Part shown: in pieces, positions 44,745 to 59,006 of the stretch
How the letters are laid out: the number at the start of each line of letters is the position of its first letter
Numbering within the stretch: the first letter of the stretch is position 1
Virus record (IMG/VR): IMGVR_UViG_3300028394_000055
Location: 1-64,000 of that record
DNA from: a virus
Reading direction: 5' to 3' (one strand)
Length of the DNA stretch: 64,000 bases
Made by a program: the position numbers and the translations under genes
Notes under the pieces: model-generated
Told to the model about the DNA's origin: nothing
Seen by the model: only the letters and a program-made list of their open reading frames with translations
Databases searched by the model: none

Positions 44745-45011
44745 ATGTCATTGTGCTATGCTTGTAGATCTACTATAGACAGTTTGGCTATACGTTGCCC
44801 TTACTGTACTAGTGAGGTGGCGGCATATTCAGGTAATCAACCTACAATATCAAAATTGATTACAATACCTAGACAAGTATCAAAAACAGAATTAACTTTC
44901 CAAACAATATCGGCTATTGTGATCGCTGCTGGAGTTTCATGGGTTTTCCACTCTTGGTATTGCTTTTGTATTTTGATCTTTATTATAGTGTGGATGAATT
45001 TAACAGAATAA
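44745..45011 (+). CDS. Zn-ribbon membrane protein
   Basis: CxxC...CxxC followed by hydrophobic C-terminal helices. Confidence 0.55.
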   Translation: MSLCYACRSTIDSLAIRCPYCTSEVAAYSGNQPTISKLITIPRQVSKTELTFQTISAIVIAAGVSWVFHSWYCFCILIFIIVWMNLTE

Positions 45012-45196
45012 CAGCCCGAGACCTATATAGCAATACAAAAAAATTGCCGCGCAAAATTTTAGAGAGTTGGAGATCTCGGCCCCTGGTGATCTAGTCTAAC
45101 TCGACTTTTTTAGGGGGTGAAAATCGCTTGCTCAAACTTGCTTGCTAGGGCTTGCGGGCAGAGACACCACCTGGTGCCCCACCACCACCCCACCGG

Positions 45197-45466
45197 TCAG
45201 GCATCTTCAAGATCGAAAGTTTGCTCCGGTTGAGTCAATTCTGAATCACCGTAGACATCAAAGCCTTCAGCCTCCAGTTGATCGCAAGCCTCGTAGAATA
45301 GTTGTTGGACCATGCGTACCTTAGCGGCTATCAGCGTGTCCTTCTTACGCTTACGCCCGCTACCTACCTTGTAGACTACAGCGTAGTGATCAGCGCAGTA
45401 ACTACGACCCTCTAGTGCAGGATGTGTACAGCGTGGGCCTGAGCCTATGTATGTGCATGTAGTCAT
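45197..45466 (-). CDS. Small Cys/His protein (GcrA C-terminal-like motif)
   Basis: C..IG...C.HP..EGRSYCADHY..VY. Confidence 0.5.
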   Translation of the reverse strand: MTTCTYIGSGPRCTHPALEGRSYCADHYAVVYKVGSGRKRKKDTLIAAKVRMVQQLFYEACDQLEAEGFDVYGDSELTQPEQTFDLEDA

Positions 45467-45714
45467 TAGTCTTCCGTCCTTGCTTTGATTACCAGTTCGA
45501 TCATGTCCTTGCGCTGTTCTTCAGTCATGTCCACCCACATCTCTACAGCAGTGGCCACACCGGACTCAACACCGTCTCGGTAGTGTAGTAGATTACTACA
45601 CATCATCATAGCAAAGATACACCAGAACTCCCAGGTGTCTATGGTATGGCCCATGGCCACTAGGGCCAAGCCCAGTGTAGTGGCTATGGCCAATCGTTGT
45701 AGTGTTTCGTTCAT
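45466..45714 (-). CDS. Small membrane protein
   Basis: Two hydrophobic segments; TAATG overlaps. Confidence 0.55.
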   Translation of the reverse strand: MNETLQRLAIATTLGLALVAMGHTIDTWEFWCIFAMMMCSNLLHYRDGVESGVATAVEMWVDMTEEQRKDMIELVIKARTED

Positions 45715-46583
45715 TAGCGTTTCATACAAGTGGTCTTTACCATTGCGGTCCAGTTGTTGGGGAAGCCTTTGCGTAGGTCAGCGATCTTCAACACCATACG
45801 CAGGCTCAGTTCACGTAGACGATCTTGATTCTGTTCTACGAACTCAATCAGTTCGTCCTCTACACAGGGTTGGAACTCATAGCGTTCCAGCATCTGTCCT
45901 TGCTTGACCACTTGCCGGATACGTAGGATCTTCTCACGATTGGTATCCATTTGGAGATCAATGTAGTGGCAACGGCTTTCCAATGCATCCAAGTGATCGC
46001 GTAGTTTCTTTGATCGTACGTGTTCGAACTTGATGTTAGTGATAAAGATAGCAGCACCTTTGAACTCAAAGCGATCTGGGATACCTTCACTACGCAGGAT
46101 GCGACTGTCAGTGTTCCAGCTGATGAACCTGCGACTACCGCTGTCCAAAGCACCCTTAAGGATGTTGAGGCTCAGGTCTTCCATAAGGATTGAGTCACAG
46201 TCGTCAAAGACCACAACGTTGCCTTCAGCGGCAAACTCATAGAGTTTAGAGTAGAGTCCGATGCTGGACATGGCACCCTTGACTACTTCGAACTTGGGTT
46301 TCTTCTCTGCTAGGATGTTGAACAGTTCGCTTTTTAGCAGGACCTTCTCAACGCCGAAGCTTTTGCCCACACCTGGAGGGCCACTGACAATCATAGCACG
46401 GATCTGTCCGTCTTTGACTGCCTTGGTCATCAGGTCCAGGATCTCAAAGCGTTCGCCCAGTCGTTGGTAGATCTGCTCGTCTGTTTCTTTAGCCACAGCG
46501 GCTTCGGTACGACGGATTGCATCTGTGTCGAACTCTAGTACTGTAGCGCCTTTGCTGGGTTTCTGTGATGCTTTGGTTGCCAT
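45714..46583 (-). CDS. AAA+/P-loop ATPase
   Basis: GPPGVGKS Walker A, VVFDDCD Walker B, FITN sensor, ALESR arginine finger. Confidence 0.85.
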   Translation of the reverse strand: MATKASQKPSKGATVLEFDTDAIRRTEAAVAKETDEQIYQRLGERFEILDLMTKAVKDGQIRAMIVSGPPGVGKSFGVEKVLLKSELFNILAEKKPKFEVVKGAMSSIGLYSKLYEFAAEGNVVVFDDCDSILMEDLSLNILKGALDSGSRRFISWNTDSRILRSEGIPDRFEFKGAAIFITNIKFEHVRSKKLRDHLDALESRCHYIDLQMDTNREKILRIRQVVKQGQMLERYEFQPCVEDELIEFVEQNQDRLRELSLRMVLKIADLRKGFPNNWTAMVKTTCMKR

Positions 46584-46641
46584 GTCTTGCCTTTCTGTTT
46601 AAAAGTGTTATTGTAACAGGGAGTTGCCTCCCTGTCTATGT

Positions 46642-46986
46642 TCAATCTGCCCGACCGCCTGCGTAGGCTGTGACACCCAGTCGTTCTTTCAAAATCTTTG
46701 CAGCCGCCGATGCACCTGCTTCTTTCACTGACATGCTCTGGGTACCGTGACCACTTGGGTTCCACCATTGCAGGCCGCCACCGTAGGCTTTCTTAAAGCC
46801 TGCTTTGATCAATGCGCGGCCCAGTTTGGTTGAGCCTTTCTCGTAGACGTTAACCCAGGCAAAGCCGCAGTACCAATCTTCACCGTGTTTGGTGATGTAG
46901 TCCTGAGCGGCCTGGGCGGCGGCTTGTTGGGCTTCGCGGATAGCGTCGTTGACGATCTTCTGTACTTGAGTTGCTGTGAGTCCCAT
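46642..46986 (-). CDS. Hypothetical early protein (CGFAWV motif)
   Basis: Own promoter and AAGGAG RBS. Confidence 0.75.
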   Translation of the reverse strand: MGLTATQVQKIVNDAIREAQQAAAQAAQDYITKHGEDWYCGFAWVNVYEKGSTKLGRALIKAGFKKAYGGGLQWWNPSGHGTQSMSVKEAGASAAAKILKERLGVTAYAGGRAD

Positions 46987-47060
46987 TTAGTGCTCCTTAG
47001 TGTGTAAGTAAGTATTATAAGCGAGAACAGCACACTTGTCAAGTGTGCTAGTAATAACCC

Positions 47061-47231
47061 TTAGGCTGTCTGGGTCTCTACAAATTGCATAAGTTCCTCG
47101 TATGTAAGTTCGTATGCATTTGCAAGTTCCGCGTCCAATTCCTCAAAATTGTCCCCTAAATAGTTAATAGTTTGTACTAGGGACATTCCGCTGTCTTTTG
47201 CAAACTGTGCAACAATTACTAAGTGTTTCAT
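47061..47231 (-). CDS. 56-aa hypothetical early protein (not in ORF track)
   Basis: MKHLVIVAQF...VETQTA; own promoter and AAGGA RBS. Confidence 0.65.
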   Translation of the reverse strand: MKHLVIVAQFAKDSGMSLVQTINYLGDNFEELDAELANAYELTYEELMQFVETQTA

Positions 47232-47268
47232 ATGTGTTCCTTTTTGTTTATGTGTGTATTATAGCAGT

Positions 47269-47436
47269 TTAGTCTGCTGCTGTCAAGTCTTTTTGTGTAA
47301 AGTTAAACAGTTTGTTGTATGTAGCAACCAACTCGTCGTCGGTCATTTTATAGCAAACACTATTTGTATCGTATTCCATTTTAATATTATACATCATTTG
47401 CCAACGTGTTAGTCCGTTACTTAATACTTTTCTCAT
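47269..47436 (-). CDS. 55-aa hypothetical early protein (not in ORF track)
   Basis: MRKVLSNGLT...KDLTAAD; own promoter and AAGGA RBS. Confidence 0.6.
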   Translation of the reverse strand: MRKVLSNGLTRWQMMYNIKMEYDTNSVCYKMTDDELVATYNKLFNFTQKDLTAAD

Positions 47437-47522
47437 TATGTTCCTTTTTGTTTAAGTGTGTATTATAACGCAAAAAAGCACATTTGTCAAATGTGCTGTT
47501 AATAACCCTGAGGGCAGTGTGG

Positions 47523-47693
47523 TTATTTCTTGGTCGTTGGAGCCTGCTGTATCTGCACACAGGTGCCTTTGAATTGCTGTTTCTGCAGGTCTTGTAGTGC
47601 GGCTTGACACACCGCCTGCTGTTCAAACTGCCCTATGTAGGTCACGCTGGGTGCTGTGGTTCCTATGCCGATGAGTGCTATTGCCCAGAACAT
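47523..47693 (-). CDS. 56-aa putative exported/membrane peptide (not in ORF track)
   Basis: MFWAIALIGIG...C...C; AAGGA RBS. Confidence 0.55.
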   Translation of the reverse strand: MFWAIALIGIGTTAPSVTYIGQFEQQAVCQAALQDLQKQQFKGTCVQIQQAPTTKK

Positions 47694-47694
47694 A

Positions 47695-47925
47695 TCAATC
47701 CTTCTTGGTTAGGGCGGCCTTGAACAGGGTGGCCTTGAACAGGATGCCGCATAGGAACTGGATGCCCCAAGCCTGTAGCCACGTGACTTCTTTAACGCCA
47801 TCTACAGCACCTACCAAGCATCCATTCCACAGCATCATCACGGGCCAGGATAGCACAAAGGATAGGAACAGCAGGGTGGCAACGCCGACTACCATTGCGG
47901 TGAGTGCTACAATTACGTCTTTCAT
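47695..47925 (-). CDS. Small membrane protein
   Basis: Hydrophobic; LWN...VTWLQAWGI; GAGG RBS. Confidence 0.7.
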   Translation of the reverse strand: MKDVIVALTAMVVGVATLLFLSFVLSWPVMMLWNGCLVGAVDGVKEVTWLQAWGIQFLCGILFKATLFKAALTKKD

Positions 47926-47934
47926 ATTGACCTC

Positions 47935-48036
47935 TTACAAAAATATGTACACGATGGCATAACCTACGGGCAACAGGCAAAGTGTTCCCACAGTTAGAAC
48001 AATGGCAAAATCTAGTGTGTCTTTTAACAGTTGCAT
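47935..48036 (-). CDS. 33-aa single-TM peptide (not in ORF track)
   Basis: MQLLKDTLDFAIVLTVGTLCLLPVGYAIVYIFL; own promoter and AGGAG RBS. Confidence 0.55.
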   Translation of the reverse strand: MQLLKDTLDFAIVLTVGTLCLLPVGYAIVYIFL

Positions 48037-48064
48037 CTCTATCTCCTAAAAATGTATTATAACA

Positions 48065-48283
48065 CTAAATGCGGAATTGGTCAAGCATTTCTTTTGCCTC
48101 ATTGACCTCAGTGATCTCATCGGCAAAGGCCATGATCATCAACTGGATCAGTGATCGGCACTCAAGACGTTCTGCCCGGGGCAGGGTAGCGATGAATGCT
48201 TCCACAGCATTGTATTCCTCCAAGGACCACATGATGTCGCATAGGGCCTTTTGCTTGTGGGTTAGTCCAGTAATTAGTTTCAT
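48065..48283 (-). CDS. Hypothetical early protein
   Basis: Own promoter and AGGAG RBS. Confidence 0.7.
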   Translation of the reverse strand: MKLITGLTHKQKALCDIMWSLEEYNAVEAFIATLPRAERLECRSLIQLMIMAFADEITEVNEAKEMLDQFRI

Positions 48284-48323
48284 CGTCGTCTCCTAAAATT
48301 GTATTATAGCAGGGTTCTAGGGT

Positions 48324-48518
48324 TCAGTCAACCGGTTTGAATGTCCGGCCTTTTAGGTCAAGTACCAAGGGTGTCTTGAACTTGAACACTTGGTTTGATC
48401 CTTGTGGCACGTAGGCCAAGGCACTTGCACTTCGTTCTCCGGGCTTGCCCTTGAAGATGTAGATGTGATTGCCACCTTGCCCATCGGGCCACCGGGTGGT
48501 CTCTTGTAGGACGATCAC
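48324..48518 (-). CDS. Hypothetical early protein
   Basis: GTGA overlap with upstream gene. Confidence 0.6.
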   Translation of the reverse strand: MIVLQETTRWPDGQGGNHIYIFKGKPGERSASALAYVPQGSNQVFKFKTPLVLDLKGRTFKPVD

Positions 48519-48736
48519 AGGGCACCGGCCTTGCGGAACATGTCCATGAACGCCGTGTTGATCAAGTCCATCTCCTCTTGCTCTACGTAGAAGTCCGTGG
48601 TGGGATCGTAGTACATGCCTTCCTTGTTGTCGTAGTACAGAACACGACCTGAGAAGTTGAACGGACCTTCCAGTCCCTTGCGGGGACCATACTTGTCACG
48701 CATACGATCTACGGTGTCCATTACGCGATATCCCAT
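48515..48736 (-). CDS. Hypothetical early protein (YYD..EG.YYDP motif)
   Basis: Own promoter and AAGGAG RBS. Confidence 0.75.
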   Translation of the reverse strand: MGYRVMDTVDRMRDKYGPRKGLEGPFNFSGRVLYYDNKEGMYYDPTTDFYVEQEEMDLINTAFMDMFRKAGAL

Positions 48737-48772
48737 GCTGTGCTCCTTAGTGTGTAAGTATGTATTATAAGG

Positions 48773-48949
48773 TCAAACACCCACTATGTCAACCAGTTCT
48801 TCCCAGGCTTCTTCGATGGTGTCAAAGCCGCAGACATCATAGGATCCATCGTAGAGTCGAACATAGAACTTGCCGTTGCCCGGACTGGCTTCTGTATCCA
48901 AGCCCGCTTCGCCCACGCTGGGGATAACTCGCATGGTCTGATCAGTCAT
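48773..48949 (-). CDS. Hypothetical early protein
   Basis: Start moved to ATGA overlap (MTDQTM...). Confidence 0.6.
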   Translation of the reverse strand: MTDQTMRVIPSVGEAGLDTEASPGNGKFYVRLYDGSYDVCGFDTIEEAWEELVDIVGV

Positions 48950-49305
48950 ACAGCCGCCTTGGCAAAGTAGCGATAGGGCAAGCCAACCAGGTAGCAGAGG
49001 AACTCGTCGTCCCCATTCGAACCTTCTGCCTCGTGGATCCAACGCAGGGCCATCTCACGGTCCTTAGCACCGCAGGCCATTACGGATTGGATCCGCATCT
49101 CAAAGGCGTGTGCGGCTTTTTCCTCTGCGGCCTTACGCAGGAGTTCATTGTCAGCGATGATGACCTGCAGACGATCCAAGTCTGCTTCAATCTCTGCTTC
49201 AGTGCAGAGGTCCAAGCGGATGTGACGTGGGCGGAAGCCGTGTGCGTCCTTGTACATATCCCAGAAGATGCTCTGTAGTTCTTCCATGCGGGTCATTGTT
49301 TCCAT
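48946..49305 (-). CDS. Hypothetical early protein (DMYKDAHGFRPR motif)
   Basis: Start moved to the ATG after GGAG RBS; own promoter. Confidence 0.75.
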   Translation of the reverse strand: METMTRMEELQSIFWDMYKDAHGFRPRHIRLDLCTEAEIEADLDRLQVIIADNELLRKAAEEKAAHAFEMRIQSVMACGAKDREMALRWIHEAEGSNGDDEFLCYLVGLPYRYFAKAAV

Positions 49306-49378
49306 AGTGTGCTCCAGTGTGTTGCTGTTCATGTGTGTATTATAGCAGGAAACAATGCCCTTGTCAACCAAAGGGTCT

Positions 49379-49612
49379 TTACAGATTCTCACCAGAGACC
49401 GTATCAATGGCACCAGTGTAGACAGCAACGACGCCGTTGCCTTCCTCAAGCCAGCCATTTATGTTCCAGACGTCACGATGTCGATTGTAGGATTCCACCC
49501 ACATGAGTGCATCCTCACGGGTGTCGAACTCTTCCTCTCCGAGCACCTTGTGATCATTCACATGACCGGCATAGATAGGGTAGATTTGAACATTGTGTAC
49601 GATTGCCATCAT
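49379..49612 (-). CDS. Hypothetical early protein downstream of the structured RNA
   Basis: GGAG RBS abuts the 3' arm of the ncRNA stem. Confidence 0.65.
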   Translation of the reverse strand: MMAIVHNVQIYPIYAGHVNDHKVLGEEEFDTREDALMWVESYNRHRDVWNINGWLEEGNGVVAVYTGAIDTVSGENL

Positions 49613-49618
49613 GTGCTC

Positions 49619-49830
49619 CAGTTAGGAAAAAGTTAGAGGAACTTTGCTGATCAATTCTGAGCTAGCTACTCTCAGATCAATCGCCGTCATTACTGCCTGC
49701 CTATTTCGTCTGCTTCTCCTTGCGGATTGCCATCTTGTAAGTGGAGGAGTAGCCTGCTAAGGCGGGGCTCAAACCCATAATCCCATCACTCACCTAACGA
49801 TGCAGGTAACCTCTAACTCTTTCCTAACTG
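49619..49830 (-). ncRNA. Putative 212-nt structured RNA of unknown class
   Basis: 21-bp terminal inverted repeat with one G-U pair on the minus strand; internal hairpins; no ORF of 60 aa or more; directly behind a perfect sigma70 promoter. Confidence 0.7.
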
Positions 49831-49873
49831 TCTATGTGTGTATTATAACGCACATAGACAGCCTTGTCAACCT

Positions 49874-50137
49874 TTATTTGTCACTGCCCCAATCTTTTTT
49901 CTCACCAAACGATTCATTGTCGTTGAAGCCTGCGGTGTAGGCTGTGATCTCAGCGGCAGTCATGTTCTCCAAGTCCACACGAGGTGTGGTGCTTGTGGCA
50001 CCTTCAAAGTAGTGCGGATGATATCCACGACCGTAGTAACTGTCGGCACTGCCCCGATCATAGGGGCCACCATGCCGTGGGTCATAGTTAGGTTGGCTGG
50101 TGTGGTTACCAGCCACTGCGTCCATATATGAGGCCAT
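49874..50137 (-). CDS. Hypothetical early protein (HGGPYDRGSADSYY motif)
   Basis: AAGGAG RBS before MASYM. Confidence 0.75.
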   Translation of the reverse strand: MASYMDAVAGNHTSQPNYDPRHGGPYDRGSADSYYGRGYHPHYFEGATSTTPRVDLENMTAAEITAYTAGFNDNESFGEKKDWGSDK

Positions 50138-50147
50138 TGTCTGCTCC

Positions 50148-50348
50148 TTAGTAAGATTGGTGACTGTGACCAATGCGGTACATCACAGTGGGCACATTCT
50201 CTTCTGTGTCCGGTGTGTAAGGCTCTGGCAACATGATCGTTGCGAATTCGCCATAGCAGTAATAACCGCTTTCGGTCACTACCAACTCTGCGTCGCCGGG
50301 CAAACGGCTCAATGCCTCTATCATCGCTGCTACTGTTATTACTGTCAT
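50148..50348 (-). CDS. Hypothetical early protein
   Basis: Own promoter and AGGAG RBS. Confidence 0.7.
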   Translation of the reverse strand: MTVITVAAMIEALSRLPGDAELVVTESGYYCYGEFATIMLPEPYTPDTEENVPTVMYRIGHSHQSY

Positions 50349-50409
50349 CTTCTGCTCCTAGTGTGTGTTGCTGTCTATGTGTGTATTATAGCAGGATCCT
50401 AAGACCCTG

Positions 50410-50619
50410 TCAACCGGAAGTGTATTCTCTAACCCACTCAAATTGGCTAGCCACCGCAAGGGCCGGCACCCACTTGAACTCAGAGCGCTTGCCATACATC
50501 TTGTCAAAGTCCAAGCAGACCAAGACCCAACCTGGCTCAGGGCTGAAGCCCACGGTCTCTGCAGTCCGAACGATTTCAACGATCCTACCGTCTCTCATCT
50601 TTGCTACTTTGATCATCAT
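50410..50619 (-). CDS. Hypothetical early protein
   Basis: Start moved to MMIKV after AAGGAG; own promoter. Confidence 0.7.
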   Translation of the reverse strand: MMIKVAKMRDGRIVEIVRTAETVGFSPEPGWVLVCLDFDKMYGKRSEFKWVPALAVASQFEWVREYTSG

Positions 50620-50681
50620 GTGCTCCTTGCTGTCTATGTGTGTATTATAGCAGGTTTGGAGAACCCTGTCAACCTCTAAGG

Positions 50682-51032
50682 TTATCGGCAATCAATGTAA
50701 GCAGATTGGATCCATTGACCCCAAGGGTTACGAACCCAACCACGCTGTTCAAAGGGCATGGTTCCAGGAGGGCATTGAACGAACCCTTGCGGTGCTTGTG
50801 GTTGAACATAGACTTGGGGTTGTTGTTGAATTACAACAGGTTCCTGACGATTGGCATTAGCGATCGCTGCACCAAAGATGCCGCCGATGATCAAGGGCAC
50901 TAGGACGTCTCCGCCGGTCTGAACTCGCTCAACGATCACGGTGCGTGGCTGATGGCGGTATTCACGGTAGTAGTCTGCTTGAGCAGCACCGACTAAGGTT
51001 AATCCGATTGCAAGGGCGATGATCTGTTTCAT
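50682..51032 (-). CDS. Exported glycine-zipper-type protein
   Basis: Signal peptide (AQA), LIIGGIFGAAIA segment, Gln/Pro linker. Confidence 0.65.
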   Translation of the reverse strand: MKQIIALAIGLTLVGAAQADYYREYRHQPRTVIVERVQTGGDVLVPLIIGGIFGAAIANANRQEPVVIQQQPQVYVQPQAPQGFVQCPPGTMPFEQRGWVRNPWGQWIQSAYIDCR

Positions 51033-51107
51033 AGTGTTCTCCGTTGTATGCTATTATTATAGTCTCAAAGTATTTACCTGTCAACCTGTAGGGTCTTTCA
51101 AAAGAGG

Positions 51108-51210
51108 TTGACAACCATAGATGAACCCCGTACACTTTGGGCATACGGGGTTCTGGGGGTTTGCCCGGGACACTACCCCCGGGACTTTTGTCCAGTACGC
51201 GATGCTGGAC
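51108..51210 (+). promoter_or_regulatory. Divergent plus-strand sigma70 promoter with three hairpins
   Basis: TTGACA-17-TACACT at 51108-51136; stems GAACCCCGTA/TACGGGGTTC, CCCGGG/CCCGGG, GTCCAG/CTGGAC. Confidence 0.55.
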
Positions 51211-51223
51211 TTCGGAGCGTTCT

Positions 51224-51499
51224 TTAGACTAGGCCAAGAGCCATTGCCCGGTAACCGGCTGCGATCAACTTGCGTGAAGGCTGTCCGATTACGTATTCTT
51301 TAACTTCTACGTGATTACCAGCGACACGAGTGTTACCGTACACTGCAAAGCCAGCAGCACGGATGCGGCTAACTTCAGCACTGATGTTCTTGATACCGAA
51401 ACGCTTCTCTGCTTGGCTAGCGGTAACAGACTCTCCGGACTTCAATGCGCTGAATAGTTTGTGGGTCTTGGTGCCCTGGTTGATGTTATAAGTTGTCAT
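51224..51499 (-). CDS. Winged helix-turn-helix DNA-binding protein
   Basis: L..L.SGESVTASQAEKRFGIKNISAEVSRIR..GF.V pattern. Confidence 0.65.
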   Translation of the reverse strand: MTTYNINQGTKTHKLFSALKSGESVTASQAEKRFGIKNISAEVSRIRAAGFAVYGNTRVAGNHVEVKEYVIGQPSRKLIAAGYRAMALGLV

Positions 51500-51547
51500 T
51501 TGTTTTCCTTAATGTTATACTGTTCACACAGTTACAACAATATTACA

Positions 51548-51805
51548 TTAATCCTTGATCAATGTCAATGTCCTTTGGAACTTCTTGGCTGGTTTCTTTT
51601 TGCCAAACTCTTGATCAGTGTAGAACTCAATCAACCTACGCTGAATCATAGTCAGCAAGTCACCGTGCTCGTTGTCAATGATGAACCTAACAGGGCAATG
51701 AGCCCAAGACTTACGTGCTTGGAACTCTGCAAACCACTGTCGGTGTTGTTTGGATTGGGCGTCAAACACTACCCATTGTCTGCCATATAACGAAAGCCTA
51801 CTCAT
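51548..51805 (-). CDS. Hypothetical early protein
   Basis: AGGAG RBS. Confidence 0.7.
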   Translation of the reverse strand: MSRLSLYGRQWVVFDAQSKQHRQWFAEFQARKSWAHCPVRFIIDNEHGDLLTMIQRRLIEFYTDQEFGKKKPAKKFQRTLTLIKD

Positions 51806-51819
51806 TGTGTCTCCTAGTG

Positions 51820-51876
51820 TCTTAGTTAAACAGAGTACTCATTTTCTTCGATGCCCGGCACTCTGTTTAACTAAGA
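51820..51876 (-). promoter_or_regulatory. Long intergenic stem-loop (possible RNase III site)
   Basis: 17-bp perfect inverted repeat TCTTAGTTAAACAGAGT/ACTCTGTTTAACTAAGA. Confidence 0.6.
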
Positions 51877-51908
51877 GGGGCATATAGCCCCAATACCCCG
51901 CTATTAGA

Positions 51909-52298
51909 TTAGTAGGGTGCGTCTTCCATCTGGGCAACGATCGCTGCCTTGGAGACAGTGCTCTTAGGAGCGGCCTTGACCTTAGCCTTGATGGATTCCA
52001 TCGTAGGTTTGGCCTTAGCAGCCTTAGGAGCCTTGGCGGGCTTAACGGCACGCTTGTCTACAGCCTCGAACAATGCTGCTTCAACTTCGGCATTGGTAAC
52101 GCCGTTTTGAGTAGCGAAGTCAATGCTCATAAGATACGCAATGGCATCTTCTTTAGTCATTGGCTCTTTGAGCTCGATGATGTCAATGTCCTTGTGACCA
52201 TTCTTGGCCAAGACCTTGACGCGAAGAGCATCATTAGCGAAACGAACTTTGAACTCACCGTTGAGACGGGAAACACCTGCATGTGTAAAAACTGACAT
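51909..52298 (-). CDS. Hypothetical protein with Lys/Ala-rich (histone-like) tail
   Basis: KPAKAPKAAKAKP; start moved to MSVFTH after GAGG. Confidence 0.7.
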   Translation of the reverse strand: MSVFTHAGVSRLNGEFKVRFANDALRVKVLAKNGHKDIDIIELKEPMTKEDAIAYLMSIDFATQNGVTNAEVEAALFEAVDKRAVKPAKAPKAAKAKPTMESIKAKVKAAPKSTVSKAAIVAQMEDAPY

Positions 52299-52394
52299 AA
52301 TAAACCTCTTTCTCTGTGTGTAAAAATATGGATGCATAATTGCGTGTCCATATGTTAATTATACAACGGTTATGGTCCGTTGTCAACCATTATT

Positions 52395-52577
52395 TTAAGA
52401 ATTTATTGTTTCGAATGGGCTCAGCTCCTCCTGTGGCGTATCTGCCACAAAGTTGCTTTCGATCCAACCATATACAATCTCTATAGGGCACTCTAATTGA
52501 ACTGCAATGCTACGGGCACTGAACCCTGCAATGTACATCTGCTCAATGTCGTATGATAGTTCGCTCATCTTACTCAT
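52395..52577 (-). CDS. Small HTH-like protein
   Basis: GFSARSIAVQLECPIEIVYGW. Confidence 0.55.
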   Translation of the reverse strand: MSKMSELSYDIEQMYIAGFSARSIAVQLECPIEIVYGWIESNFVADTPQEELSPFETINS

Positions 52578-52782
52578 CGTAGGCCTCCTCGCCCATTTCG
52601 GTTACTGTTTCTTCAAACACCCGAACATCAACGATGCGGGCTGTTTGATCTTCATTGCTAACACCTTCAAAGGCATCTCGGAAACTTTGGCACTCTGCCA
52701 AGAAGTTGAAAACATCTTGTCGATCCCAAGTGCCCGGCACTTCCAATACCTGTACCAGTTCTGTGCGTACTGTGACTTTCAT
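52570..52782 (-). CDS. Hypothetical early protein
   Basis: ATGA overlap with upstream gene. Confidence 0.65.
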   Translation of the reverse strand: MKVTVRTELVQVLEVPGTWDRQDVFNFLAECQSFRDAFEGVSNEDQTARIVDVRVFEETVTEMGEEAYDE

Positions 52783-53246
52783 GCTGTTTCCTTTTCTAAT
52801 GCTTCTGTTAATAGTGTCAAACGCTTGCTCAAAGGCGTGCTTGTGTATGTGTCACCACAATACCAAACACCGTCCTTGATAATGTAGTAGTACTCAGCAC
52901 CACAGCCGTCTGCTTGCTCCAGGAACTCTTCGAAGGTGTGTGCTACTTGGAACTCAGTACCAGTCTCGCCGCGGTCACGTGCGTAGAACGTGCAGTAGCC
53001 TGCTTCTTTGGCTGCTTCGTATGCCAACTTGTCTAATTCGCTAGTGTGTGGGCTGAACGGATGTGCTTCACCAATTACCCGGCCCAACGAACTCATGTCG
53101 CCTAATGCTACAAGGTTGTTGGCTCGAGCACTGTCGTAATGCTCTTGGAGGATTGCTCCGTTGTGTGCGAGATAGCCATCCCAGTGGCAATAAACGCTTT
53201 TGACCTTGTCACCGTGCATGACTCCAATGCGTGATCGTGTTCCCAT
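52779..53246 (-). CDS. Hypothetical protein (MGTRSRIG...YCHWDGY motif)
   Basis: Own promoter and GGAG RBS. Confidence 0.8.
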   Translation of the reverse strand: MGTRSRIGVMHGDKVKSVYCHWDGYLAHNGAILQEHYDSARANNLVALGDMSSLGRVIGEAHPFSPHTSELDKLAYEAAKEAGYCTFYARDRGETGTEFQVAHTFEEFLEQADGCGAEYYYIIKDGVWYCGDTYTSTPLSKRLTLLTEALEKETA

Positions 53247-53309
53247 AGTGTGCTCCAGTTAGTGTGTGTAAGTGTATATTATAACAGGGTTCTTAGGCCC
53301 TGTCAACCA

Positions 53310-53519
53310 TTATTTGAAATAAACTACCAAATTCCGTGTAGCAGTCTTTACGAATGCACAGTTGCCATCTACCGTGTGCTTGGGGTTGTTCATTACTTTA
53401 TTGTATATAATTTTGACACTGCGAGCGCTTTGCTCGGGTGTAGTGTACTTGCCCTGGCACCCGCACATACAGCCGCGGTTGCCGCTATAAACTTCCTCTA
53501 CGTTGGCTAGTGTAAACAT
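53310..53519 (-). CDS. Hypothetical early protein (GCMCGC motif)
   Basis: Own promoter and AAGGAG RBS. Confidence 0.7.
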   Translation of the reverse strand: MFTLANVEEVYSGNRGCMCGCQGKYTTPEQSARSVKIIYNKVMNNPKHTVDGNCAFVKTATRNLVVYFK

Positions 53520-53604
53520 GAACGCTCCTTAGTGTGTAAGCATTAATTATAACAAGGTTTTACCACTTTGTCAACCAACCCTACACACCGTAGGGTCTTT
53601 GTTG

Positions 53605-53952
53605 TTAATCTACAACAACCAGTTGTCCGAACTTAGCAGTCCAACTCTTGAGGAACTTTGGACCCACATCACATGACACATAGTCATTGCCCTGCATACC
53701 CTGCTCGCTATAACTGACATCCAAGCCCAACTTGTGCTCGACTAGGAAGTTGGTCACATCTTCAAAGAACTGACCATCTGTGTAGATCAAACCGTCTTTG
53801 CGTGTATCCCAAGTCTCGGTGTTGAAGTAGATACGCAGTTCGCCAAAGTCTAGTTCGTCACTGACATAGCCCAACTGCATATCAACGATCTCTACAGCCT
53901 TTCGGGCTCGACTCCAGTAGCCATCGCCTTTGGTGTTGAAAATTACTGTCAT
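53605..53952 (-). CDS. Hypothetical early protein (YSEQGMQ motif)
   Basis: Own promoter and AAGGAG RBS. Confidence 0.75.
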   Translation of the reverse strand: MTVIFNTKGDGYWSRARKAVEIVDMQLGYVSDELDFGELRIYFNTETWDTRKDGLIYTDGQFFEDVTNFLVEHKLGLDVSYSEQGMQGNDYVSCDVGPKFLKSWTAKFGQLVVVD

Positions 53953-54052
53953 TGCTGCTCCTTAGTGTGTAAGCATGTATTATAGCACCAAATAGAAACC
54001 CTGTCAACCGTAGGGTTATTTGGTTAGGATCTTGACCATCCACTCAATTGCA

Positions 54053-54544
54053 TCACTCATTTTCGTTCTCCTCTTCTTGCTCTGCTTCGTACTCTGCTAC
54101 AGACTCGCTGATGCCAAAGGTCTCATCCAAGTCATCGGGTAGCAGGGCTTCGATCTCCTCGGCACTCATGTCACCATATTCATAGTAGTCATCATCACCG
54201 TTCTCCCACTTGCCGCAGAAGGCCATACCAGGTTCGTAGTAGTAGGCCAGTATCTTGAAGCCCTGCTCCATCAACTGCTCATAGGCACTAGTAGGGGGAG
54301 CCCAGGCACTATCAAAGTTGAACACAACACCATTGGCATCCTGCTCTACCATGTGAGCATCTTCACCGCCCACATCCCACTTGGTGCCCCAGTTCTGGAC
54401 ACACCAATTGTAGTCCCACTCACCGTTGGGGAATGGTACGAACTCTTGTAAGAACCTGCCTGCTTGATAGGCCGTCTTAGCCCGCTCAATCATAGCAGGG
54501 TCGTTGTGGCTGATGTTCAGCGTGTTATTGCACCAATTTGGCAT
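54053..54544 (-). CDS. DUF1281/YubB ferredoxin-like fold protein
   Basis: MPNWCNN, NWGTKWD, FDSAWAPP, YYEPGMAFCG. Confidence 0.75.
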   Translation of the reverse strand: MPNWCNNTLNISHNDPAMIERAKTAYQAGRFLQEFVPFPNGEWDYNWCVQNWGTKWDVGGEDAHMVEQDANGVVFNFDSAWAPPTSAYEQLMEQGFKILAYYYEPGMAFCGKWENGDDDYYEYGDMSAEEIEALLPDDLDETFGISESVAEYEAEQEEENENE

Positions 54545-54545
54545 G

Positions 54546-54818
54546 TTATTCTCCAGTGTAATATTCGTAAAAGGATTCTTTAACAGCGGGATCCAACCGG
54601 ATCAACTCTGTTACACATTGATTCAAGTAGTCCTGCTTCTTACGCAGTTCTACACCACGTACCTCGCCATCACAGGTCAAGTTCTCTGGGCTTAGGTCTG
54701 CATCCAACGATTGGGCAACCCGCCGGCGACCTGAGGCACTCTGCACCTCAAACTGCTCACCTTTGAAGATAGCGTTCCAACGGTTCTTCTGCTCTACATA
54801 GGCTGTCAATGCTTTCAT
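54546..54818 (-). CDS. Hypothetical early protein (LSPENLTCDGE motif)
   Basis: Own promoter and AAGGAG RBS. Confidence 0.75.
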   Translation of the reverse strand: MKALTAYVEQKNRWNAIFKGEQFEVQSASGRRRVAQSLDADLSPENLTCDGEVRGVELRKKQDYLNQCVTELIRLDPAVKESFYEYYTGE

Positions 54819-54876
54819 CTCTGCTCCTTAGTGTGTAAGTAAGTATTATAGCAGGGGATTGCTCCCCTGTCAACCA

Positions 54877-55161
54877 TTACATTGTGTGAAACAGTTCGCG
54901 ACTCGGGTCGTTGCAGGTTCCCTGGCACTCACGGCGGATCTCAACTTCCTTACCAGTCAAACAGTTCTTCACAGTCACAAGCTGGCGACCGTTGAATGCG
55001 GCAACCTGCTTGACGAACTCTTTCTGCTTGCGTTTGGGCAATAGGCGCAACATCTCCTGCGCCATCTGGTTGGTGTAGCCTGCTGTGAATGCGGCACCTT
55101 GCTCGCTGAACATGAGGTTCAGTTCTTCTTTGAGTGCAGTTTGATTGTCTGTGGTAAACAT
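54877..55161 (-). CDS. Hypothetical early protein
   Basis: Own promoter and AAGGAG RBS. Confidence 0.7.
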   Translation of the reverse strand: MFTTDNQTALKEELNLMFSEQGAAFTAGYTNQMAQEMLRLLPKRKQKEFVKQVAAFNGRQLVTVKNCLTGKEVEIRRECQGTCNDPSRELFHTM

Positions 55162-55212
55162 GAGTGCTCCTTAGTGTGTAAGCAGTAATTATAACAAGGT
55201 TTTACCAGTCTG

Positions 55213-55461
55213 TCAAGCCAGTGCTCGGAATAACCCTACAGCCATTGTGGCTAATGCTGCAACGTTAACTGCCATCTGTGGCTTATTTGCCACACGTATG
55301 GTCCATGTCAAGAACAATATAGTTCCCACAGCAAAGGCCGCAATGTTCCAAACGTCCTTATGATAGGCACTGCCCATGGTGTTGAGTACGTGCCCTGCTG
55401 TGATAAAGAACGCCCCTGTCCATTGTAGTACTTCGTCTTTGTTAATATTAAGCACAGGCAT
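55213..55461 (-). CDS. Small multi-TM membrane protein
   Basis: Three hydrophobic helices; its stop codon lies in the next -35 box. Confidence 0.65.
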   Translation of the reverse strand: MPVLNINKDEVLQWTGAFFITAGHVLNTMGSAYHKDVWNIAAFAVGTILFLTWTIRVANKPQMAVNVAALATMAVGLFRALA

Positions 55462-55822
55462 TCTCTCGGTCAACCTGATCGCTTAACTCAGCAAACTTCT
55501 TGCTCATACGATATACTTGACTCTTAGCCTCAGTCATAGCCTCAGCAATGAAGTCCTCGGCAGTCCCGTCAGTAAGCACCTCACGGGCATCTTCGTATAA
55601 GCATCCGCCCAAATAGGCACTGCCAAGTTCGAGCCCTTCGACGAGTACACGTACCCGCAACATGAACCATTCGTAGGTCCCGTTGTCAATCTTACGGAGG
55701 ATCTCGTCCATGTCGTCTGATTCGAAGTGATCCCTGGGGTTAAAGTCTTCATAGGTCTTATCCACAATAACGGTGTAGCCGTCACGTTCAAACTCAGCGA
55801 TTGTGTCGTAATATTGTGTCAT
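55448..55822 (-). CDS. Hypothetical early protein (YLGGCLY motif)
   Basis: TAATG overlap. Confidence 0.7.
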   Translation of the reverse strand: MTQYYDTIAEFERDGYTVIVDKTYEDFNPRDHFESDDMDEILRKIDNGTYEWFMLRVRVLVEGLELGSAYLGGCLYEDAREVLTDGTAEDFIAEAMTEAKSQVYRMSKKFAELSDQVDRENACA

Positions 55823-56109
55823 TATGCCAATTCCTTTTCAACGATGGTGAGCATGTTAGCAGGCACTCTCCACATGCCAGTGGTTGTGCATACTGTGACA
55901 AACTTGATAGCGATCTTCATCACGGTGCCCTGCATAGTGCGGCCTGTCTTAGAACTAGTGAAACTGACCTCGTCGCCGTAGCGTAGGCTTCGTTTGGTGT
56001 TTTCACGCAGGCGTGCTTGTGCAAAGCGGACAGCGTCCACAATGCTAACCAGTTGAGCGTTGGTAAAGCCACCCTGCAGGATCTCAGTGTTAATCTGCGT
56101 AATATTCAT
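55822..56109 (-). CDS. Hypothetical early protein (SH3-like C-terminus)
   Basis: GDEVSF...G.V.KI..K.V.V....G.WRVP; own promoter. Confidence 0.7.
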   Translation of the reverse strand: MNITQINTEILQGGFTNAQLVSIVDAVRFAQARLRENTKRSLRYGDEVSFTSSKTGRTMQGTVMKIAIKFVTVCTTTGMWRVPANMLTIVEKELA

Positions 56110-56161
56110 CTCATGCTCCTTAGTGTGTAAGTAAGTATTATAACGCCGTTAGGCACTCTTG

Positions 56162-56401
56162 TCAACCTAAAACTATCACGCGGCGAGCACCTTCGAAGTC
56201 GCCTTCTTCTTCGTACATCTCGTCCTCGTCTAAGAGCCGGTCCATACGGTGATATTCACTGTACTTGACCATGCCCTCTAATACGCTGCCTACTTTGGGG
56301 GCAACCTCTGTGCGCCAGTGATCGCCATAGTTATAACTGAAGTGAACTTCAGCATTGGGATCTAAATCCATCAATTGCTCGATTAGTTGAAAGACTTGCA
56401 T
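56162..56401 (-). CDS. Hypothetical early protein
   Basis: Own promoter and AAGGAG RBS. Confidence 0.7.
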   Translation of the reverse strand: MQVFQLIEQLMDLDPNAEVHFSYNYGDHWRTEVAPKVGSVLEGMVKYSEYHRMDRLLDEDEMYEEEGDFEGARRVIVLG

Positions 56402-56481
56402 CTCATGCTCCTTAGTGTGTAAGCGTTAATTATACAATGGTTTTACCACTAGGTCAACCAAAGACCCTACAATGCCTAGGG

Positions 56482-56697
56482 TTAATACTTGACCACGCGA
56501 TCCACTTGTGTCAAGTAAGCCCATGAGTCATCGTAGTCAATGCCCGGGAGTCCATTCTTGATATCCTCATCTACGCCCGTTACAGTAACAGTCTTTGGGC
56601 TACCCGTGCCAAAGTTATCACGCACACGCACGATGGATCCCTCGCGAATGTCGCTGAGCATGACTCGCTTGAGAACTGTTGAGTATTGTGTAAACAT
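56482..56697 (-). CDS. Hypothetical early protein
   Basis: AAGGAG RBS. Confidence 0.7.
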   Translation of the reverse strand: MFTQYSTVLKRVMLSDIREGSIVRVRDNFGTGSPKTVTVTGVDEDIKNGLPGIDYDDSWAYLTQVDRVVKY

Positions 56698-56708
56698 AAG
56701 TGCTCCTT

Positions 56709-56921
56709 TTAGCAGTCAGCGTCAAAGTCTGCCCACTCTTGGGCTTCATCGGGCTGACCGTCATCATCTTCTTCTTCGAAGCGCTCGCTCAACTCGTTGG
56801 CATCCAGCAGGTCTTCAACTTCGCTTTCGCTCATGAAACCCATGCACATGTCAACCACTTGCTCATGAGTGATCATACCCTGATCTAGCAAGTCGTATAG
56901 TCTCTCTCTGGCTTTAGTCAT
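56709..56921 (-). CDS. Highly acidic small protein
   Basis: Start moved to MTKARE after AAGGAG; tail DDGQPDEAQEWADFDADC. Confidence 0.7.
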   Translation of the reverse strand: MTKARERLYDLLDQGMITHEQVVDMCMGFMSESEVEDLLDANELSERFEEEDDDGQPDEAQEWADFDADC

Positions 56922-56968
56922 CTCATGCTCCTTAGTGTCTATGCGTGTATTATAGCGGACATCCGCCA

Positions 56969-57313
56969 CTATGTCAAGTCGCCGCGAATGTCCGTGTTCA
57001 GCGCAGGGTTAATCAAGCGACGCAGTTCAACTTCCCGCTTGTGAGCAGCAGCCTTACCACGTATGATCTCATGCACACGAATCTCAATCTCGCTCTTGTC
57101 ATTCAAAGAGCGCAAAGCCACGCACAGGGCCCAGTCCTTGTTCTCAGTCTTGGCACGATAGAAGTGCTTGGCTGCACGAGCACGAACTGACTTCAATACA
57201 GTGGTCTCTGTCTTAGCAGTGACACCAATGTAGTTGAGGCCGTTGACCACTAGTTCATACACTATGTGATTGCGGTCTACACGCTTCTTACGAGTAACAG
57301 TTTCTTTGTTCAT
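56969..57313 (-). CDS. GIY-YIG-like protein
   Basis: HIVYEL....NYIGVT...R...H, E..L...LN; ATG 6 nt after TATAAT. Confidence 0.6.
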   Translation of the reverse strand: MNKETVTRKKRVDRNHIVYELVVNGLNYIGVTAKTETTVLKSVRARAAKHFYRAKTENKDWALCVALRSLNDKSEIEIRVHEIIRGKAAAHKREVELRRLINPALNTDIRGDLT

Positions 57314-58149
57314 GTATGTATTATAACAAGGTTTTACCACTTTGTCAATAACTTTCTTTCTGTAGGGTTATTCGTTGTTTTCCCACAACATGACCGGCAC
57401 TCCTGTGAAACTTAACATAATGCCAAAAGAAAACCCTATTACCACAAGGGTCTTAGGGTCTCTTAGTCAGTACATTCAGCAAGTCTCTGTCGTACTGCCC
57501 GATCAGCTTGTTCCAATGTAGTCTCCTACACGTGCCTTTACCACCGGATGTTTACGTGGTCACTGATTCAACTCCAGTAGCATATAGTCTATGACTGTAC
57601 TCAATACCGCTTATAGAACTCCCAGGCATCCGGCCCCTGTTCTAGGTCACTGTATCTATCCTGGCGTTTACGGTTTATATATACACTACCCACAGTGGAG
57701 TTATACTCTACGAGTACATGTCTTAGCATACATGTATATAGTATAACATACTCTCACACTTTGGACAACACATGATCTCGTGTGTGTTGCACTAGTACAA
57801 CATTGACTACACAGTAGTTATACACGTAGATTACCGTGGCAGAATCGTCACGAAACGATGCAAAAACGGTCTAATTAGAGTGGAAATTGTCCCGATCTCC
57901 ACCATTTTCACACTGAATCATAGTGATTTTTATAGTGTTTTTAGAATGGAACAGGGTGGGGATGAGAGGCTATCGTAAGATACTCTACCATACTTTCACA
58001 GTAGTCTCACAGTGTTTTCATAGTGTAATACCAAAGTAGATTTAGAGGCTATACCAAAGTAAATCTCAACCTTAGACTACGGTCCAGAGGACCCCTGAAG
58101 GGGAGGATCGACTTCTATATAGGTGTTTGTTTTGAGTGTCGGCCCCTAT

Positions 58150-58215
58150 AGCGGGGTATTTGGCACTAGGCCTACAGCGGGGTATTTGGCACTAGGCCTA
58201 CAGCGGGGTATTTGG
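58150..58215 (+). repeat. 26-bp tandem repeat (2.5 copies)
   Basis: AGCGGGGTATTTGGCACTAGGCCTAC x2 plus AGCGGGGTATTTGG. Confidence 0.9.
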
Positions 58216-58400
58216 TATATAGTGTATATACACAGTGGTGATCACGCTGTGCATATACTCAATTCAAAGAGTGTTCCAGCGGGGTATTCATTACCAGTTA
58301 AGTCTATGGCATATATGGTAAGCAATGCCCAAGATGATCATAGGTCCGCTAATGGCGAGTAGTTCTAGCATGTTATATTCTCCTTATATTCAAGTAGTAT

Positions 58401-59006
58401 TTAACGCCAAGGGGGTCCAGCCACCCAGCCCACCAAACTTGCACGTTGTCCTGTAAGTAAGGGAGTAACGCGATGCATCTGGAAACTGGGGAATACATGT
58501 AAAGCGCCCTGTTCTCTGCCCGCTAGATGTGTTTCCTCATGTCCCAGCATCATTTCCAGATCGCATCCTGTATACAGTGTAGGGTCAGTCAGTTGTAGAC
58601 TAAAGCTAAGTTTTCTATTGTGCATACCTTTGTAGTACCACATATCCACATGTGATTCATTAGCATCGTTAGGATGTAGATATTCTGTATATTGTAAGCA
58701 TTCTATGTAGTCCAAATCGTATTTAAAAGCCTGTTCATTAACGGTCATTATTTGGTCAGTCAATCGTTTGTATATCCATTGTGTATCGATATTACCGCTA
58801 TCAAACCAACGTATAGTACTTCTTCTTATATTATTATCAATGCTATCAGTTCTACCCACACGGGCGGGTATTCTAGGATATTGTTCAGCCAGTTGTTGGA
58901 TTGTTTGGCATTCCATTGGAGTAAACGCTGGATTAAGGGTAACCCAGGGATTGTGGGTAGTTTGTTTAAGATACCATTGTGAGTGGAAGTAGTTGTTCAT
59001 AGTCAA
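58401..59006 (-). CDS. 2OG-Fe(II) oxygenase (prolyl-hydroxylase/PKHD-type)
   Basis: HVD, RKLS.SLQL, Y.G.DL, FPSF..HRVTP...G.R.SLVGW. Confidence 0.85.
   Translation of the reverse strand: MTMNNYFHSQWYLKQTTHNPWVTLNPAFTPMECQTIQQLAEQYPRIPARVGRTDSIDNNIRRSTIRWFDSGNIDTQWIYKRLTDQIMTVNEQAFKYDLDYIECLQYTEYLHPNDANESHVDMWYYKGMHNRKLSFSLQLTDPTLYTGCDLEMMLGHEETHLAGREQGALHVFPSFQMHRVTPLLTGQRASLVGWVAGPPWR

Follow-up and report, generated by a model that had tools for sequence, protein, structure and literature searches.

A dense array of consensus-promoter cassettes as a probable immediate-early region of an uncultured freshwater jumbo myophage

The promoter early stem-loops (PeSLs) of T4-like phages combine a strong early promoter of sigma70 consensus with a stem-loop, which is often built of polyG/polyC (PMC2839356, Arbiol 2010). 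The stem-loop is found most commonly between the two promoter boxes (-35 and -10), and otherwise overlaps a box or stands upstream of the promoter, and the element as a whole is bounded by the stop codon of the upstream gene on one side and by a Shine-Dalgarno (SD) sequence and ATG on the other (PMC2839356). PeSLs are dense in hyperplastic regions, with eight in ~5 kb, for which crossovers between the -10 box and the SD/ATG as well as mini-circles have been described (PMC2839356; PMC4122927, Comeau 2014); the phages concerned are RB49/phi1, PST/T4 and nt-1/KVP40 (PMC2839356, PMC4122927). [quoted passage not shown] Here we describe an array of promoter-bearing units, each followed by small genes, in a window of 64,000 nucleotides (the whole stretch that was analysed, positions 1 to 64,000 of the IMG/VR virus record IMGVR_UViG_3300028394_000055, whose numbering is used below). 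The array is likely to represent the hyperplastic, immediate-early region of a freshwater jumbo myophage and to be made of PeSL-type cassettes.

A promoter scan of the region 45.5-58.5 kb recovered 18 perfect TTGACA-N17-TATAAT sites, all on the minus strand (57348 to 47014), three sites that are one base off (P3, P17 and P18 in Table 1) and two with 10 of 12 matches (P22 and the weak promoter of cassette 10b). The total of 23 promoters between 46610 and 57348 agrees with the tally of an earlier note on this DNA, which had listed 23 minus-strand promoters with 17-bp spacers, 18 of them perfect. The chance expectation of a 12/12 site, from (1/4)^12, is ~0.001 per 10.8 kb; the scanned region has 50 promoter-like sites as against 16.8 +/- 4.3 in shuffles, and the array holds 18 of the 19 perfect sites in the entire 92.6-kb record, all co-oriented with the genes. 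Read on the minus strand, the 22-23 units precede ~35 genes of 33-163 aa. The repeated elements were also counted exactly by that note: CTTACACACTAAGGAGC occurs eight times on the minus strand, ACACACATAGACAG three times, and AAACAAAAAGGAACA and TTTTAGGAGA twice each, with none elsewhere on this strand, and the identical spacer AAGTGGTAAAACCTTGT is found at 57342 in P1 and at 53568 in P8, the former leaderless and the latter with a standard leader. P1 is leaderless, its ATG lying only 6 nt past the -10 box, and the remaining promoters have a leader, as had been claimed; these leaders are 23-36 nt long, except for those of P10 (59 nt) and P14 (~230 nt, structured).

To describe the unit more generally, we used 583 distinct modules, drawn from 80 related loci as well as from the window. 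The consensus that they yield is GG-TTGACA-N17-TATAAT-ACAyACAT, with an A-rich spacer centre (tAAA) and an extended -10 TG at -15/-14 in ~60% of cases. The leader, whose length has its mode at 25-33 nt, has a G fraction of at most 0.15 to about +16 and is nearly G-free before the SD, an SD-like motif being present in 468 of the 583. Upstream, the unit is flanked by the last part of the preceding gene, and GG stands in front of the -35 box: in 93 of 463 modules the stop codon of that gene is the TGA inside TTGACA, and in 288 of 463 the stop lies inside the promoter or at most 12 nt before it. The spacers are diverse (515 distinct ones among the 583 modules), and one motif within them, TGGTAAAA, recurs at a fixed offset in 85 of the 583 modules, four of these in the window. 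Stem-loops are located in the spacer in P6, P9, P10, P20 and P22, around the -35 box in P7, P15, P19 and P21, and just upstream of the promoter in P3 and P8; P1, P11 and P16 have no convincing hairpin. From -25 to the end of the spacer the minimum free energy (MFE) is -9.64 kcal/mol compared to -7.20 kcal/mol for shuffled sequences (Wilcoxon 1e-38), a moderate effect. A hairpin with a T-run is restricted to P19 (47497-47477), P7 and P3. With their consensus promoter, G-free leader and strong SD, the modules might be used as compact, portable expression parts. A spacer motif of the form TGGTAAAACC, at a fixed offset between the -35 box and the -10 box, is seen in 15% of the 583 modules and in 11 of 20 in one relative (G007); it is found at 57339, 56448, 55207 and 53565, and again on the plus strand at 88273 of the record, outside the window. 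This motif is a candidate operator for an array-encoded DNA-binding protein.

In its anatomy the array has the features by which PeSLs are defined at the sequence level, namely the sigma70 consensus, the 17-bp spacer, the stem-loop, and a unit bordered by a stop codon on the 5' side and by SD plus ATG on the 3' side, all in a hyperplastic cluster of small ORFans that differs between relatives, with indels, replacements and displacements that seem, at least in part, to break in units. The PeSL analogy drawn by the earlier note is therefore apt, and it extends to detail in that GGGG-loop-CCCC spacers resembling that of P6 occur in two of the six perfect promoters of RB49. Unlike the PeSL phages, however, the source phage is not a member of Straboviridae, its nearest cultured relative being PA5oct (Arenbergviridae), and the array packs 18 perfect sites into 10.3 kb whereas RB49 has its six in 164 kb and, where they are densest, eight PeSLs in ~5 kb. 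The array further differs from PeSLs in that the -35 box supplies the previous stop, the leader is conserved and G-poor, the cassettes form an island of high GC at third codon positions (GC3), and no AT-rich tract is found upstream. Among the nearest cultured relatives by structural genes, PA5oct, GAP32 and CBB, there are 8-13 perfect promoters per 287-378 kb, at most four of them in ~7 kb, and no dense array has been reported for these phages; in both CBB and GAP32, several identical copies of a single consensus promoter are found close to a genome end. Because the sequence features of PeSLs are found in the array, and RB49, PA5oct, GAP32 and CBB are sparse in such promoters, we regard it as belonging to the PeSL kind at far higher density and perfection, in a different lineage.

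In SPO1 the takeover genes form numerous short operons that each carry a strong host-sigma promoter and a strong ribosome-binding site (RBS). The array resembles this module in its extent (~11 kb), in its two to three dozen small genes mostly of unknown function, in its short operons with predicted strong host-sigma promoters and RBSs, and in a presumed role in redirecting the host. In contrast, SPO1 (Herelleviridae) has a Gram-positive host and belongs to an unrelated phage family, the cargo of the array has no seen similarity to annotated host-takeover families, and the SPO1 module has not been described as a library shuffled by recombination.

The record is a 92.6-kb virus contig with a CheckV completeness of 24%, and hence the genome is estimated at >300 kb. 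For the tail sheath, identity is 37% to PA5oct and 34% to the Rak2-like phages GAP32 and CBB, the terminase, helicases and sheath fall in PHROGs of the T4 superfamily, and the runs in which the array is present come from freshwater and lake metagenomes; judged by sequence, the source is an uncultured freshwater jumbo myophage. The array is closed by a 289-aa AAA-like gene (45714-46583, minus strand), which is a homologue of T4 NrdC.10 (phrog_1250) with 40% identity to nrdC.10 of Acj9 and Aeromonas phage 25 and 49% to that of PA5oct. A megablast search of the array against 50,697 GenBank phages gave zero matches. The NrdC.10-like protein has >580 relatives in IMG/VR, and at 80 fetched loci perfect promoters stand upstream of the nrdC.10 homologue on the coding strand, at up to 19 per 10 kb, with nearly none on the other strand. 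Whole relative contigs carry arrays in a single block, with 19 perfect promoters in 10.3 kb in G006 and 20 in 10.6 kb in G007. The array is thus a trait of the clade, and extends the PeSL-type architecture from a handful of cultured T4-like phages to a large, abundant clade of uncultured jumbo phages from freshwater, in an unusually pure form.

Alignment across relatives had been set beforehand as the test of the claim that the cassettes are shufflable, and it supports that claim: neither their order nor their content is conserved. The comparison covered L009-L013 and 75 further loci. Despite numerous insertions, deletions and replacements, the gene-family strings of the 80 loci keep a backbone that is loosely collinear; in addition, family 7 is duplicated, and families 9, 19, 27 and 33, the pair 10+31 and the block 38-39-40 are translocated. 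Against the closest relative, L011, homology ends inside units at 56468, 55219, 51076, 48769, 47440, 47238 and 47020, and further homology blocks end at gene ends or within genes. Taking as breakpoints the distinct ends of high-scoring segment pairs (HSPs) at >=88% identity, 45% fall in the unit window of -40 to +65 as against 15% expected, and 27% of the upstream boundaries lie in the spacer or the -10 box as against 3% expected, an 8-fold enrichment. Breakpoints are found at 70 of 306 promoter-bearing junctions (23%) and at 49 of 384 promoter-less ones (13%; odds ratio 2.0, p 5e-4), in counts that lack phylogenetic independence.

The switch of homology was followed further in close pairs of loci, a test used in place of an ungapped identity profile around all family-level module pairs, which was uninformative. 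Where only the upstream gene is shared, 34% of close pairs have spacers of at least 70% identity, compared to 19% where the downstream gene is shared, and the first 10 transcribed bases track the downstream gene (0.77 vs a baseline of 0.49). Homology therefore switches on either side of the spacer, which travels with either neighbour. For instance, a TGGTAAAACCTTG-type spacer follows family 23 in nine loci, with eight downstream families and differing leaders. Hybrid promoters are present in both IMG/VR and lake contigs. In one from a lake metagenome (joint 56954->54879), the end of gene 13 and a compensatory variant of the P6 hairpin-spacer are joined to the -10 box, leader and gene of P2; other lake metagenome contigs have the joints 50393->56983 (with a foreign -35 and spacer), 49347->53590 and 49849->53997. 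A back-joint, 54840->46609, which leads from the promoter of gene 37 to the leader of gene 14, is present in contigs of the source sample; it could stem from a mini-circle formed between units and is explained equally well by a different gene order in a co-occurring relative. The clade thus offers hundreds of natural variants for testing regulatory repeats as guides of gene exchange.

The array also coincides with a compositional island (Table 1), which, like the clade-wide conservation, is an addition to what the earlier note had described. GC3 is 0.554 in the 35 island genes compared to 0.243 in 76 open reading frames (ORFs) of the backbone; the corresponding fractions are 0.58 vs 0.11 for ATC and 0.62 vs 0.21 for AAG, and NNC codons make up 0.60-0.78 of all two-fold Y families in the island as against 0.18-0.30 in the backbone. 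NCG and GGG codons are not raised in the island (GCG 0.05 vs 0.06). The backbone favours ATA (0.42), AGA (0.39) and TTA (0.45), and also GGA, CCA, TCA, ACA and CAA. A shift to C-ending codons without a rise in NCG or GGG argues against plain GC pressure, biased gene conversion and a half-ameliorated import, and for translational selection. Only cassettes 19 and 20 and one 33-aa gene depart from this pattern within the island. The same GC3 offset is found in ~28 of 38 relatives with enough sequence (array 0.45-0.59 vs backbone 0.25-0.46) and is missing in one sub-clade; since the relatives that share it span 73-95% identity in the NrdC.10-like protein, the split appears to be old and maintained.

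According to a long-held idea, early genes draw on the tRNA pool of the host, and the tRNAs of the phage serve its late genes. A 221-kb relative with the codon split (G002, the contig of locus L034) encodes 40 tRNA genes, including Leu-taa, Arg-tct and Ile-tat; eight perfect sigma70 promoters stand among these genes, at the other end of the contig from the array. With a 30-point GC3 gap and a near-complete tRNA set in a relative, the clade would be a clean natural system for this idea. Differences in codon usage between early and late genes are known generally in phages (PMC5683454); what is unusual here is the size and sharpness of the split between the array and the backbone. With somewhat more doubt than conviction, we propose that the genome is written in two dialects, with an early library in host-adapted C-ending codons (GC3 ~0.55) and a backbone in A/T-ending codons (~0.24-0.4) that would need ~40 phage tRNAs driven by consensus promoters, so that translation would be partitioned in time and the cassettes would be a commons, near-identical across co-occurring phages with differing backbones. 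In G002 the tRNA region is on the plus strand and the array on the minus strand (5.6-18.3 kb and 216.8-221.0 kb), and the two would adjoin divergently if the contig self-closes.

If the array is an immediate-early region of PeSL-type cassettes, as we think likely, the sigma70 RNA polymerase of the host would fire all the units on DNA entry, and the unstructured leaders and host-like C-ending codons would permit immediate translation by host ribosomes and tRNAs. The AT-rich remainder would be expressed later, leaning on phage tRNAs as suggested by the relative with 40 tRNA genes. Because all units begin with the same 30-60 nt, they would offer homology patches at which co-infecting related phages could swap, delete, duplicate and move cassettes, as for PeSLs. 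A number of observations weigh against this reading. Few of the hairpins bear a U-run, which makes terminator activity doubtful for most units, and the AT-rich tract of PeSLs is not found, the 40 nt upstream having an AT fraction of 0.54-0.56 compared to 0.52 in coding sequence. No tRNA genes were found in the 92.6-kb fragment, and the host-like character of the codons is presumed. Contigs of an RNA library with the array and without its flanks (X19) were considered as a sign of expression and rejected: because the DNA run X2 has an identical pattern, it reflects relatives that share cassettes and not transcription.

The remaining contrary points concern recombination, and they equally favour a reading in which the modules are alike through per-gene selection for the strongest promoter, leader and RBS, shuffling takes place at any gene boundary by ordinary recombination, homologous or illegitimate, and the repeats have no special role. 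Promoter-less junctions also break, at the 13% noted above; family-level adjacency is kept nearly equally inside operons (0.289) and across promoters (0.253); HSPs run through any common module wherever the crossover occurred; and with so many distinct spacers the contiguous identity between modules is often short. We judge this expression-only reading to be rather unlikely, in view of the 8-fold enrichment of breakpoints in the spacer and -10 box, the two-fold higher frequency of breaks at promoter junctions, the hybrid modules in which the spacer goes with the upstream gene and the -10 box and leader with the downstream gene, and the crossovers between the -10 box and ATG shown experimentally in RB49 (PMC2839356). 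On balance we lean, if only by a little, towards a real role of the units in recombination. Thus, the proposal of the earlier note that the repeats serve recombination finds support in the enrichment of breakpoints within modules, and does not in the breakage of promoter-less junctions or in adjacency, which is no better kept within operons.

A reading compatible with the preferred one places the array, as a host-takeover module, in a long direct terminal repeat (DTR), after the fashion of SPO1, so that it would enter the cell ahead of all other phage DNA. In what is probably the source run the word depth is 20.7-25.7 in the array contigs as against 14.2-14.3 in both flanks, with steps at ~45981-46061 and 58180, a measure that is confounded by GC bias and by other genomes with the same cassettes and cannot settle the question. 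The upstream edge of the array is formed by a non-coding region of ~1 kb (57349-58400) with iterons and several short repeats of the CACTGTG type, in which a Logan contig break and depth step are found at 58179-58186; this region might serve as an origin, in regulation or as a terminus. PA5oct has its early genes in a 'long DTR', the terminal repeat of CBB has repeated perfect promoters, and many long contigs of relatives stop inside the array. Nevertheless, we hold a terminal repeat to be improbable: the depth ratio is 1.5-1.8 and not 2, array pieces in X2 and X3 stand at many times the flank depth, the nrdC.10-like gene contains the left step, the 26-bp tandem repeats account for the contig break on the right, and a complete 322-kb relative (G001) has the array in its interior; read-start pile-ups, moreover, are not something that contigs can reveal. 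Full-consensus promoters bind RNA polymerase very tightly, and the 22-23 promoters might accordingly act as a sink that sequesters the host sigma70 holoenzyme, with the ORFs being secondary. The window and two measured relatives do keep 18-20 perfect promoters per 10.3-10.6 kb despite their varied content. Yet every promoter is followed by an optimised leader, an SD and an open frame with selected codons, many cargo families are conserved clade-wide, and two of their products fold at pLDDT 95-96, which makes this reading more improbable still. Least credible of all is a foreign island or assembly chimera, in which 13.5 GC-rich kb came recently from a GC-richer phage or were mis-joined to the DNA of one. 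A sharp step in composition and the existence of GC-rich relatives (L052/G001, GC3 ~0.7) speak for it, but the junction of array, nrdC.10 and AT-rich backbone recurs in dozens of independent contigs with NrdC.10-like proteins 73-95% identical to that of the window, the GC3 difference between array and backbone is retained in those contigs, and, in contrast to the GC-rich relative, there is no rise in NCG or GGG codons; this reading is largely refuted. An integron was set aside on anatomy alone, the units being promoters with leaders and not attC-like sites; no integrase was looked for.

The cargo consists, as the earlier note had stated for most of it, of unrelated tiny genes: the 35 proteins (33-163 aa) form 35 separate BLAST families. 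PHROG searches gave no match for 24 of the 35, and the remainder fall in families of unknown function; the PHROG and Pfam scans also identified one winged helix-turn-helix protein (HTH_39), a weak match to DUF1281_C and several small membrane proteins. A PDB sequence search with four of the cargo proteins gave no match. AlphaFold models of the conserved 114-aa protein of cassette 21 and the 155-aa protein of cassette 9 reached a predicted local distance difference test (pLDDT) score of 94.6 and 96.3, respectively; Foldseek found no match for either at E <= 0.001, and the best VIA-align Z scores (4.9 and 4.2) were uninformative. A by-eye suggestion that gene 1 is GIY-YIG-like was dropped for lack of support from Pfam, PHROG and PDB sequences. 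Presumably the cargo is accessory, with functions in host takeover, exclusion or counter-defence, to judge by analogy from the SPO1 module and the PA5oct early genes. The ~35 ORFans are candidates for new host-interaction functions.

Table 1. Features of the array and its surroundings; promoters are designated P1 to P22 in the direction of reading, and breaks are ends of homology with L011
Feature	Position	Strand	Description
Iterons	58145..58288		three tandem 26-bp repeats plus a fourth core copy
Compositional island	45000..58500	-	array and nrdC.10-like block; GC 44-51% vs 26-42% elsewhere in the record
Cassette 1	56969..57348	-	perfect P1 57348-57320, TGGTAAAACC-type spacer; leaderless 114-aa gene without PHROG or Pfam match
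Cassette 2	56482..56977	-	P2 56977-56949, overlaps stop of gene 1; genes of 70 and 71 aa, the latter missing from L011 (breaks 56705 and 56468)
Cassette 3	56162..56482	-	P3 56457-56429, TTGACC; hairpin ACCCTA-N7-TAGGGT plus CTTTGG; 79-aa gene, stop is the TGA in the next -35
Cassette 4	55213..56165	-	P4 56165-56137; genes of 95, 124 and 82 aa (82-aa product a predicted membrane protein)
Cassette 5	54877..55216	-	P5 55216-55188, TGGTAAAACC spacer; 94-aa gene; HSP break at 55219
Cassette 6	54053..54873	-	P6 54873-54845, spacer hairpin GGGGAG-loop-CTCCCC; genes of 90 and 163 aa
Cassette 7	53605..54007	-	P7 54007-53979, hairpin enclosing -35, then T-rich run; 115-aa gene
Cassette 8	53310..53574	-	upstream hairpin ACCCTA-N7-TAGGGT; P8 53574-53546, spacer as in P1; 69-aa gene
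Cassette 9	52395..53306	-	P9 53306-53278, spacer hairpin; genes of 155, 70 and 60 aa
Cassette 10	51548..52386	-	P10 52386-52358, spacer hairpin, 59-nt leader; genes of 129 aa (51909-52298, Lys/Ala-rich tail) and 85 aa, the latter preceded by a terminator-like hairpin at 51891-51877
Cassette 10b	51224..51568	-	weak promoter 51568-51540, TTGACA/TAATAT; 91-aa winged-helix protein (51224-51499, Pfam HTH_39)
Cassette 11	50682..51084	-	P11 51084-51056; 116-aa protein with signal-peptide-like N-terminus; break at 51076
Cassette 12	50410..50672	-	P12 50672-50644; 69-aa gene
Cassette 13	49874..50413	-	P13 50413-50385; genes of 66 and 87 aa
Cassette 14	49379..49870	-	P14 49870-49842; 225-nt structured RNA/leader 49836-49612; 77-aa gene
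Cassette 15	48773..49367	-	P15 49367-49339, hairpin enclosing -35; genes of 119 and 58 aa
Cassette 16	48324..48792	-	P16 48792-48764; genes of 73 and 64 aa; break at 48769
Cassette 17	48065..48331	-	P17 48331-48303, TTGACT; TTTTAGGAGA leader; 72-aa gene, family in 51 loci
Cassette 18	47523..48084	-	P18 48084-48056, TTGACC; membrane proteins of 33, 76 and 56 aa; phrog_2169 (membrane protein)
Cassette 19	47269..47497	-	P19 47490-47462, intrinsic-terminator-like hairpin 47497-47477 centred on -35 (AGCACA..TGTGCT), T run after; AT-rich 55-aa gene, GC3 0.38; own leader type
Cassette 20	47061..47286	-	P20 47286-47258, spacer hairpin; AT-rich 56-aa gene, GC3 0.39; leader type of cassette 19
Cassette 21	46642..47042	-	P21 47042-47014, hairpin centred on -35; 114-aa protein, 51 loci
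Cassette 22	45197..46638	-	P22 46638-46610, TAGACA/TACAAT, spacer hairpin; 289-aa NrdC.10 homologue and conserved 82- and 89-aa genes

Individual cassettes differ in their conservation. Within the array, conservation is greatest in the gene block 21-22-23, and the array ends in cassette 22 as its fixed anchor. Cassettes 19 and 20, which have the leader AAACAAAAAGGAACA in common, belong to rare families (4-5 loci) and look like recent imports that brought their own leader. The RNA/leader downstream of P14 is closed by a long stem (MFE -80 kcal/mol, z -4.4); L011 and L009 share it at 99% identity, as against ~88% in the surroundings, and it is missing in the other 78 loci. An Rfam search over 45-58.5 kb gave nothing above noise, this RNA included. 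The 140-nt non-coding gap before P11 (51085-51223, minus strand) has a GC-rich hairpin, CCCGGG..CCCGGG, at 51164-51183.

Outside the array, the backbone shows no enrichment in the T4-type late motif TATAAATA, which has 5 sites there as against ~20 expected, and TAAATA-N3-8-ATG occurs 23 times outside the island (e.g., at the starts 12323, 21748 and 23347) and not once inside it; the latter count hints, weakly, at a T4-like late programme. Beyond the non-coding region, IMG/VR has no close relatives of the upstream flank gene (2OG-Fe oxygenase-like, 58401-59006), and this precluded a comparison of the far boundary of the array. Many long contigs of relatives (82-221 kb; L025, L034, L036, L081, L019, L023, L059 and others) end within the array, which fits assembly breaks at repeats or population microdiversity; possibly some are physical ends. 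Finally, the NrdC.10-like AAA protein is named 'thioredoxin' in records of the PA5oct group (MK797984.1, PP408249.1), a label that probably slipped over from the adjacent nrdC gene.

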